From Escherichia coli (lineage in GTDB: Bacteria > Pseudomonadota > Gammaproteobacteria > Enterobacterales > Enterobacteriaceae): a DNA stretch of 64,000 bases. Position 1 is the first letter of the stretch. Every line of letters begins with the position of its first letter. Below the pieces are notes generated by a model that was not told the DNA's origin, searched no databases, and saw nothing but the letters and a program-made list of their open reading frames with translations. Location of the stretch: assembly GCF_024223415.1 (NCBI RefSeq), contig NZ_CP100502.1, one strand, 5' to 3'. The position numbers were made by a program, and so were the translations under genes. This document shows positions 40,369-42,529 of the stretch, in pieces.

Positions 40369-40635
40369 TTACCAGGGTAATAAAGACGTATTAAATAAGC
40401 TAACAGGTAGTATTTGCCCTGTAATAAGGTTCCCGGCAAGGCCAGGTCTCAACGTGACGCGTCGCAAAGACATTGTTGTATTCTGCCTGGTTGTATATTC
40501 AGTTAACCATTTTCTTTTTTCATCGTTCAGAAGTGTTGGTGATAATGATAGTGCCGGATATATTACAGAGCCATTTATTTCTTTTTTCTGTCTCAATATT
40601 ACCCCGCAATATTCTCTTTTCGTGTTTCCTGCGAA
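40369..40635 (-). pseudogene. traE: traE-like gene, 3' portion (last 88 codons), separated from its 5' portion by IS2
   Basis: In frame with 41972..42529 once IS2 and one copy of the GGGGA duplication are removed; ORF-track entry 40369..40677 begins inside IS2. Confidence 0.7.
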
Positions 40636-40651
40636 GGGGATGGATTTGCCC

Positions 40652-41557
40652 CTATATTTCCAGACACCTGTTATCACTTAACCCATTACTGGCCTGCTGC
40701 CGCAGATATTCCCGTGGCGAGCGATAACCCAGTGCACTATGCGGATGCCATTCGTTATAATGCTCGAACGCCTCTGCAAGGTTCTTTGCTGCCGTTAACC
40801 CGTCTGGTTTAGGCATGATACTGATGTAGTCACGCTTTATCGTTTTCACGAAGCTCTCTGCTATGCCGTTACTCTCCGGACTCCGCACCGCCGTGTTCTT
40901 CGGTTCAAGCCCCAACATCCGGGCAAACTGCCGTGTTTCATTAGCCCGGTAGCATGAACCATTATCCGTCAGCCACTCTACTGGAGACGCCGGAAGCTCG
41001 TTGCCGAAGCGGCGTTCCACCGCTCCCAGCATTACGTCCTGTACTGTTTCACTGTCGAAGCCGCCCGTAGTGACTGCCCAGTGCAGTGCCTCACGGTCAC
41101 AGCAGTCCAGCGCGAACGTGACTCGCAGTTTTTCTCCGTTATCACAGCGGAACTCGAACCCGTCAGAGCACCATCGTTGATTGCTTTCTTTCACGGCCAC
41201 TTTGCCAGTATGTGCCCGTTTCGATGGCGGTACAGCGGTTTTTCGCTCAAGCAACAGCGCATTCTGGCGCATGATCCGGTAAACACGTTTGGCATTGATC
41301 GCAGGCATACCATCAAGTTCGGCCTGTCTGCGAAGCAGCGCCCATACCCGACGATAACCATACGTGGGCAGCTCTCCGATAACATGGTGTATACGGAGAA
41401 GCACATCCGTATCATCTGAGTGACGGCTGCGGCGACCATCTTTCCAGTCATCGGTTCGTCTGAGAATGACGTGCAACTGCGCACGCGACACCCGGAGACA
41501 ACGGCTGACTAAGCTTACTCCCCATCCCCGGGCAATAAGGGCGCGTGCGCTATCCAC
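40652..41557 (-). CDS. insD: IS2 transposase OrfB (InsD), 301 aa
   Basis: ORF track; IS3-family DDE transposase. Confidence 0.9.
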
Positions 41558-41880
41558 TTTTTTGCACGCCCGTATTCAACGGCTTCTTTAAGGAGTTCAT
41601 TTTCCATCGTTTTTTTGCCGAGCAGGCGCTGGAGTTCTTTAATCTGCTTCATGGCAGCAGCAAGTTCAGAGGCAGGAACGACCTGCTCTCCTGCGGCCAC
41701 AGCAGTAAGACTTCCCTCCTGGTATTGCTTGCGCCAGAGAAATAACTGGCTGGCTGCCACACCGTGTTGCCGGGCAACAAGGGAGACCGTCATTCCCGGT
41801 TCAAAACTCTGCTGAACAATAGCGATCTTTTCCTGTGTAGTACGCCGTCTGCGTTTCTCCGGTCCTAAGACATCAATCAT
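41515..41880 (-). CDS. insC: IS2 OrfA (InsC), 121 aa
   Basis: Internal ATG 41880 ([22 protein letters not shown]...); HTH protein. Confidence 0.85.
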
Positions 41881-41971
41881 CTGCTCTCCAATGACTAGTC
41901 TAAAAACTAGTATTAAGACTATCACTTATTTAAGTGATATTGGTTGTCTGGAGATTCAGGGGGCCAGTCTA

Positions 41972-42529
41972 GGGGAAACTATGCCAGAAAATAACTTCAG
42001 TGTTGCTGCTATCACTAATAAGCATTCTGAAATTATCAGCAGTATCTGGCCATTCACCGGACAACGCTATCGGATAGTTTTCATGGCCATTCAGCCAGTC
42101 CGGATTGAGATTAAAACATTCAGCAAGATGTTCGAGAGCGTCAGCTGAAAGATAGTCTGCAAGTCTGGCCGGGTCCTGTATAACCGTGGAGCGGATATTC
42201 CATGGCGACAGCAATGTTGCCAGTAATGGCGCATTTATATCATGCGACAGCATGATGTATTCAATTCTGCTTATTATGTTTCCTGTGGTGTTATCCGCAG
42301 GCATAAACATATTATGAAGAGCATCCTCAAGCAGGATTCGGGTTAAATCAGCGGTGGATATGGCTAATTGTTCGCTCATTATCCCCAGAACTTCTCTTAC
42401 CCCTTGGGGGTAACGGACCTGCAGAGGTGTCGGGTTTATCTGACGACCGTTGATGAGTTTTTCGCCGATTGCTTTTTTGTCCAGCGAGAGCATCATTCGG
42501 GCCGCAATACCGGTCGTATTCAGTCTCAT
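41972..42529 (-). pseudogene. traE: traE-like gene, 5' portion (186 codons); reading frame runs into the IS2 terminal TAG
   Basis: ORF 41969..42529 stops at the first three bases of IS2; reconstructed intact gene is ~274 codons. Confidence 0.7.

Follow-up and report, generated by a model that had tools for sequence, protein, structure and literature searches.

The window analysed here is a stretch of 64,000 nucleotides of Escherichia coli DNA (NCBI RefSeq assembly GCF_024223415.1, contig NZ_CP100502.1), and the locus under study is a copy of the insertion sequence (IS) IS2 lying within the transfer gene traE of an IncI1 resistance-type plasmid. The 5' part of traE (41969..42529, minus strand) starts with an ATG at 42529 and forms a truncated open reading frame (ORF) of 186 aa, the stop codon of which, TAG at 41971-41969, consists of the first three bases of IS2. 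It is followed by a complete IS2 of the IS3 family (1331 bp, 40641..41971, minus strand), the transposase genes of which are co-directional with the tra genes. The target-site duplication reads GGGGA on the plus strand and is located at 41972..41976 on the side of the left inverted repeat (IRL; TCCCC in gene orientation) and at 40636..40640 on the side of the right inverted repeat (IRR). The 3' part of traE, codons 187-274 and the stop codon preceded by one copy of the duplication (40369..40640, minus strand), is now untranslated. The truncated TraE ends at residue 186, with no tail encoded by IS2. The gene order rci-traE-traF-traG-traH is that of the canonical IncI1 plasmids, with traE the first gene after rci.

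IS2 belongs to the IS3 family and transposes by a copy-out/paste-in mechanism via a minicircle. The published ends of IS2 are imperfect inverted repeats, with an IRL of 42 bp and an IRR of 41 bp (PMC3299598), and the ends of the window copy align as such an imperfect 42/41-bp pair with one gap. The alignment to an IS2 reference that had been proposed together with the original prediction was made with the annotated IS2A of E. coli K-12 MG1655. The terminal repeats are present: IRL (41930..41971, minus strand), which opens with the TAG that stops the truncated traE, is identical at 42 of 42 positions, and IRR (40641..40681, minus strand), which abuts the 3' part of traE, at 40 of 41. Over the whole element the two copies are of equal length, with 0 gaps and 56 substitutions (95.79% identity). 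By ISfinder convention a copy counts as an isoform if its nucleotide identity with the reference element is 95% or more, a line that the window copy clears only narrowly. Both copies share the 1331 bp, the orfA/orfB layout and the 5-bp length of the duplication (ATTAC for the K-12 copy, which lies in yaiX), whereas the window copy belongs to a variant which RefSeq labels merely as 'IS3 family transposase'. Numerous E. coli chromosomes and plasmids carry copies 100% identical to it, annotated as IS3-family transposase. No second IS2 copy was found in the whole of the window.

The coding content of the element agrees with this identification. The orfA frame (InsA/TnpA, 121 aa plus stop, 41515..41880, minus strand) matched the NCBIfam IS2 repressor TnpA with 276.4 bits against a cut-off of 229, and the orfB frame, which holds the rve/DDE domains, matched the NCBIfam IS2 transposase TnpB with 706.5 bits against a cut-off of 597. 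Pfam matches in the IS2 frames were HTH_Tnp_1, HTH_21, rve (71 bits) and rve_3 (66 bits). Where orfA and orfB overlap there is an A6G motif, AAAAAAG (41557..41563, minus strand), and a -1 shift at this motif opens an OrfAB transposase of 409 aa (40652..41880, minus strand). An A7 run at 41616-41610 was rejected as the frameshift site, since fusions made there end after 94 aa; the working site is the A6G motif at 41563-41557. RefSeq marks an identical IS2 copy, on the plasmid pLH09-a-B, as a 'programmed frameshift' joined from two pieces. As judged from its sequence, the window copy is structurally complete and potentially active, with predicted slippage at A6G. The intactness of all its parts, together with 100% identical copies at many loci, implies recent transposition activity. 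The family matches, the K-12 alignment and the aligned ends bear out the original prediction of a 1331-bp IS2 at 40641-41971.

The predicted GGGGA repeats were found at the junctions as described and are exactly 5 bp long, 4- and 6-bp extensions failing. The same length of duplication was seen in eight other IS2 insertions (see below) and in K-12 IS2A; the probability of a given 5-bp flank repeat by chance is about 1/1024. Deletion of IS2 and one repeat in silico gave an 825-nt ORF of 274 codons plus stop with an unbroken frame, as had been expected of a gene of approximately 274 codons into which the upstream reading frame, ending on the terminal TAG of IS2, would be rejoined. The comparison with uninterrupted homologues went further: the repaired 1059 bp (gene and flanks) is 100.0% identical, in a single piece, to the uninterrupted traE of four plasmids (NZ_CP019691.1, NZ_CP116924.1, NZ_LT985273.1 and LC567060.1). 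Chance is excluded because the repair restores a known allele exactly. Among the matching PLSDB records, 1373 of 1392 carry an uninterrupted traE (1292 of them at 99% identity or above), and the exact 274-aa intact protein is present on at least 1000 contigs. By sequence and gene order the interrupted gene, at first called merely 'traE-like' and the first of its block, is the IncI1 (R64-type) traE itself. IS2 has integrated into traE with duplication of 5 bp of the target, and its first three bases supply the traE stop codon after residue 186. A mechanically called ORF of 102 aa (40369-40677, minus strand) starts with a GTG within IRR and joins 14 IS2-encoded residues to TraE residues 187-274 in frame; no convincing ribosome-binding site was found for this predicted ORF.

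The plasmid pLH09-a-B (NZ_CP100546.1; E. coli, poultry faeces, Switzerland) is a near-identical sibling of the window. Positions 1-43724 of the window correspond to 51115-94838 of pLH09-a-B with 0 mismatches (43,724 bp, 100.0%), and positions 47925-64000 to 96589-112664 with 1 mismatch (16,076 bp, 99.994%). The insertion point, duplication, orientation and sequence of IS2 are the same in both, and RefSeq already annotates the traE of pLH09-a-B as two pseudogene fragments with an IS3-family transposase between them. The traE::IS2 event is hence already known from a public sibling record; no relevant open-access literature was found on IS2 in IncI1 traE or on strain LH09-a. The sibling differs in having an intact rci and another shufflon arrangement, the rci of the window carrying an extra 2442-bp IS66-family element.

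The allele is not confined to these two plasmids. The exact 186-aa truncated product (WP_225103456.1) occurs on 29 contigs, and the index of the public assembly collection has it in 51 blocks, drawn from unrelated samples of NCBI, ENA and Logan. In four further loci (L014, L015, L016 and L019) the sequence TTTCCCC runs directly into TAGACTGGCCCCC, the IRL of IS2, with 0 differences across the 558-nt 5' fragment; L014 and L015 extend further, across the second junction with its TCCCC duplication and on to traF. Other short-read contigs stop exactly at the IS2 junction, as expected of a repeat. That contigs break there, and that an E. coli genome tends to carry several IS2 copies (a median of 4 places), would be compatible with a repeat element misplaced inside traE by the assembler. 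Such an artefact is given a negligible probability in view of the perfect 5-bp duplication, of both junctions being identical in the independent complete or long assemblies of pLH09-a-B, L014 and L015, and of the short-read contigs L016 and L019, which read through into IRL.

The same junction in pLH09-a-B and several unrelated assemblies points to one event, already disseminated; as far as the sequences tell, traE::IS2 arose once, in a recent ancestor of the plasmid lineage that now circulates. The insertion had been described as recent and without later decay. The undiverged flanks agree with an evolutionarily recent insertion and with the lack of decay, but 'recent' holds in a relative sense only, the truncated product already being found in the 51 collection blocks. 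The junction at traE nt 558 with its TCCCC duplication is of use in tracing the lineage of one circulating IncI1 plasmid family.

The effect on conjugation can be judged from work on the same genes in the same plasmid family, in which laboratory mutants with a measured phenotype take the place of the natural IS2 allele of the window. R64 mutants in traE, traF and traG show no transfer defect according to Komano 2000, as cited in PMC6112013. In transposon sequencing (TnSeq) of the IncI1 plasmid pESBL the 'non-essential' scores were 0.93 for TraE, 1.00 for TraF and 0.79 for TraG, with 'required for transfer' at 0.00, while TraH through TraY scored approximately 1.00 as 'required', with 0.98 for TraH (PMC4288162, Table 2). 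Himar insertions in traE, traF and traG of pESBL were not depleted after transfer and are therefore not polar on required genes (PMC4288162). By analogy traE::IS2 most likely has little or no effect on conjugation. This reading follows from the dispensability of traE, traF and traG in R64 and pESBL, from the required genes starting at traH and from a terminator-like hairpin after traF, and fits the spread of the allele over many samples. A simple IS2 transposition into traE of an IncI1 conjugative plasmid, tolerated and most likely neutral or near-neutral for conjugation, is considered the highly probable explanation of the locus. IS2 in traE would then be an ordinary event in a dispensable gene and matter little, and the spread of the allele may be taken as a natural confirmation that traE is expendable. 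An IS inside a 'tra' gene does not by itself mean that conjugation is lost.

The genes downstream of traE are intact. The next gene is traF (400 aa, Pfam TraF_2, 39082..40284, minus strand), followed by traG (194 aa, histidine-phosphatase family, 38438..39022, minus strand). A promoter-like site, TTCACC-17-TACAAT (42570..42598, minus strand; consensus 9/12), lies 41 bp upstream of the traE ATG and is a candidate traE promoter; the consensus scan gave no promoter-like site upstream of traF. A strong terminator-like, GC-rich hairpin followed by a U-run (39047..39070, minus strand) is located 12 nt past the traF stop, with a folding free energy (dG) of -19.1 kcal/mol and a z of -2.95. The promoter-like site before traE, the lack of one before traF and the hairpin after traF suggest that traE-traF is a transcription unit separate from traG onward, in which case IS2 would probably be polar on traF only. 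Transcripts from the traE promoter would cross approximately 1.2 kb of poorly translated RNA before reaching traF, the expression of which would probably be reduced by polarity.

The IRR of IS2 contains an outward -35 hexamer that makes fusion promoters if a -10 hexamer lies 17 bp away (PMC9330008, PMC3299598), as at ampC (Jaurin & Normark 1983), acrEF and neoR (reviewed in PMC9330008). These cases share with the window the same element and an outward IRR -35 aimed at the downstream gene. The insertion could accordingly matter for regulation, with IS2 either blocking traF and later genes by polarity or driving them, through the outward -35 of IRR or through transcription reading out of IS2, so that the efficiency of transfer would change measurably. 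For such an effect speak the precedents just named (PMC9330008), the co-direction of IS2 with the tra genes, by which IRR faces traF, and the lack of a traF-proximal promoter-like site, which makes traF probably dependent on upstream transcription. However, the flanks of ampC, acrEF and neoR had a -10 hexamer at 17 bp and the flank of the window, TCCCCTTCGC, has none. At a spacing of 16-18 bp from the IRR -35 the flank reads TCCCCT, CCCCTT and similar, and a fusion promoter at the IRR/flank junction was rejected: a generic scan lent it no support, and among all -35/-10 pairs spanning the junction the best total was 6/12. Further, the terminator-like hairpin follows traF, neither traF nor traG is itself needed for transfer, and Himar insertions in traE, traF and traG pass through transfer without depletion (PMC4288162, Table 2). 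A regulatory effect of this kind is considered unlikely, and the suggestion in the original prediction, itself hedged, that the IS2 end might create or destroy promoters for traF onward was not upheld by the junction scan, the hairpin or the dispensability of the three genes.

IS2 has entered this region at least nine times. In public IncI1 plasmids (loci L001-L009, L014-L016, L019 and L026) nine independent IS2 insertions were counted in the 2.7-kb stretch traE-traG, each with its own 5-bp duplication. Five are in traE, at nt 286 (GTCGC), 423 (ATCTC), 558 (TCCCC, the insertion of this window) and 654 (ATCAC) in the same direction as the tra genes, and at nt 524 (AGCAG, L026) in the opposite one. 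One is in traF (ATCTG), opposite to the tra genes. The remaining three are in traG, two in the direction of the tra genes (TTATC and AAAGC) and one opposed to it (ATTTA). The search joins pieces on one strand only, and the query was therefore repeated with IS2 flipped, which gave the opposite-orientation copies in traF and traG; the opposite copy in traE was recovered by a protein match (P0030, L026). A bias in orientation, considered because the first six events were all co-directional, was rejected at the final count of 6 co-directional to 3 opposed insertions (binomial p = 0.51).

The recurrence might be taken as a sign that plasmids benefit from losing traE (or all of traE-traG) or that the site is a hotspot for IS2, in other words as selection or targeting rather than tolerance. 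Nine independent insertions in 2.7 kb are in its favour, as are further lesions of traE: a stop codon inside the gene in NZ_CP182337.1, a 5' end truncated by IS1 in pCUVET21-424.4, a frameshift allele (P0020) and a nonsense codon. The latter was at first taken for a second IS2 case, its product being a cluster representative of 186 aa (P0014); it is actually a change of TTC to TAA at codon 187 in an ENA metagenome contig of 4.5x coverage (L025). The TAA falls at the same boundary as the IS2-supplied stop, yet no IS2 is present. Also in favour of selection or targeting is a second traE allele, differing from the window by 6 single-nucleotide polymorphisms per 558 nt, whose contigs (L023, GCA_012256685.1, and L024) end at the same place, at traE nt 557 and 559. 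These ends at the same TCCCC site could mark a second IS strike there or a recombined flank.

The comparisons made do not agree with selection or targeting. A control chimeric query of the same design, placed in the dispensable zone trbA-excA, returned 6 records and the traE-centred query 7, and a hotspot in traE-traG was rejected on this count, the control being one zone in one orientation. The orientation ratio of 6:3 is unremarkable (p = 0.51), and eight of the nine IS2 events are at distinct sites with distinct duplications. The 1373 intact copies among 1392 PLSDB records, 1292 of them at least 99% identical, are not the pattern of selection for loss. Adaptive loss or a hotspot is judged very improbable. 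Under the preferred explanation, tolerated and nearly neutral transposition, IS2 would land in traE-traG repeatedly simply because insertions there are tolerated. The similar counts suggest, as a mildly new observation, that traE-traG and other dispensable segments of the IncI1 backbone gather IS2 at similar rates.

The TraE family is narrow: a set of 5.8 billion proteins contains 37 clusters of it (90% identity), and every one comes from I-complex plasmids. TraE gave no match in Pfam, NCBIfam, PHROGs or PADLOC (E <= 0.01-0.1) or in the PDB (phmmer and profile search). It matches neither the F-type TraE family nor any pilus-assembly domain and shares with the former the name only. The labels 'thick pilus protein' and 'F pilus assembly' (cluster P0012 and the pESBL annotation in PMC4288162, Table 2) appear to have been propagated from the gene name alone, and the label 'TraE' does not imply a role in F-type pilus assembly.

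In an alignment of 17 full-length TraE homologues (46-98% identity) conservation extends to the C-terminus, and 13 invariant columns fall in the 88 C-terminal residues lost to IS2. A single-sequence AlphaFold prediction was of no use (predicted local distance difference test score, pLDDT, 39.6). The alignment-based model reached a mean pLDDT of 74.4, with residues 81-274 mostly at 80-92, and in it the lost 88 residues include nearly all of the predicted beta-sheet. Truncated TraE is probably non-functional or at least altered. Foldseek comparison of the model with the PDB returned nothing at E <= 0.001. From the helix pattern a fold of the XRE-type helix-turn-helix (HTH) was tentatively placed in the five-helix stretch at approximately 81-146. 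Residues 84-153 alone had no Pfam match even at E <= 10, a PDB profile search gave only noise, and neither supported an HTH of the HTH_3 type. If the tentative HTH is true, the IS2-truncated protein would keep the DNA-binding part and lose the C-terminal alpha/beta domain.

Several points weigh against a neutral insertion in an expendable gene. The full-length conservation of TraE in I-complex plasmids, together with the disruption of only about 1-2% of PLSDB copies, suggests that the protein is useful in nature. Residues 1-186 are kept, including the tentatively predicted DNA-binding region, so that the allele may not be a clean null. Dispensability was measured in laboratory matings of R64 and pESBL, and other hosts or conditions may differ. 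The promoter and terminator assignments come from matching to a consensus only. Taken to their furthest, the model-based points would make TraE an unrecognised DNA-binding regulator (with an XRE-type HTH at approximately 81-146 and perhaps a ribbon-helix-helix-like part at approximately 35-75), the truncation of which would give an altered regulator rather than a null; its effect on IncI1 transfer or establishment would have been missed by laboratory matings, and disruption of traE-traG would be partly selected. We regard this as distinctly improbable.

On the other side of traE, the shufflon recombinase gene rci is itself split (fragments at 42680-43724 and 46167-46284, minus strand) by an IS66-family element of 2442 bp (43725..46166) with 13 identical terminal bases and 22 of 30 matching in its inverted repeats. 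It is flanked by the 8-bp duplication TGATAACA at 43717-43724 and 46167-46174, and removal of the element and one copy of the duplication restores a 384-aa Rci. The element is younger than the IS2 insertion, since pLH09-a-B, otherwise nearly identical, does not have it. Two similar plasmids have an ISEc8-family transposase among their RefSeq features, possibly but not necessarily within rci. Like traE, rci was 'non-essential' in the pESBL TnSeq data, with a score of 1.00 (PMC4288162). The shufflon segments at 46335-47943 of the window are unlike those of pLH09-a-B in order and orientation, and, rci being interrupted, they are presumably locked in this arrangement.

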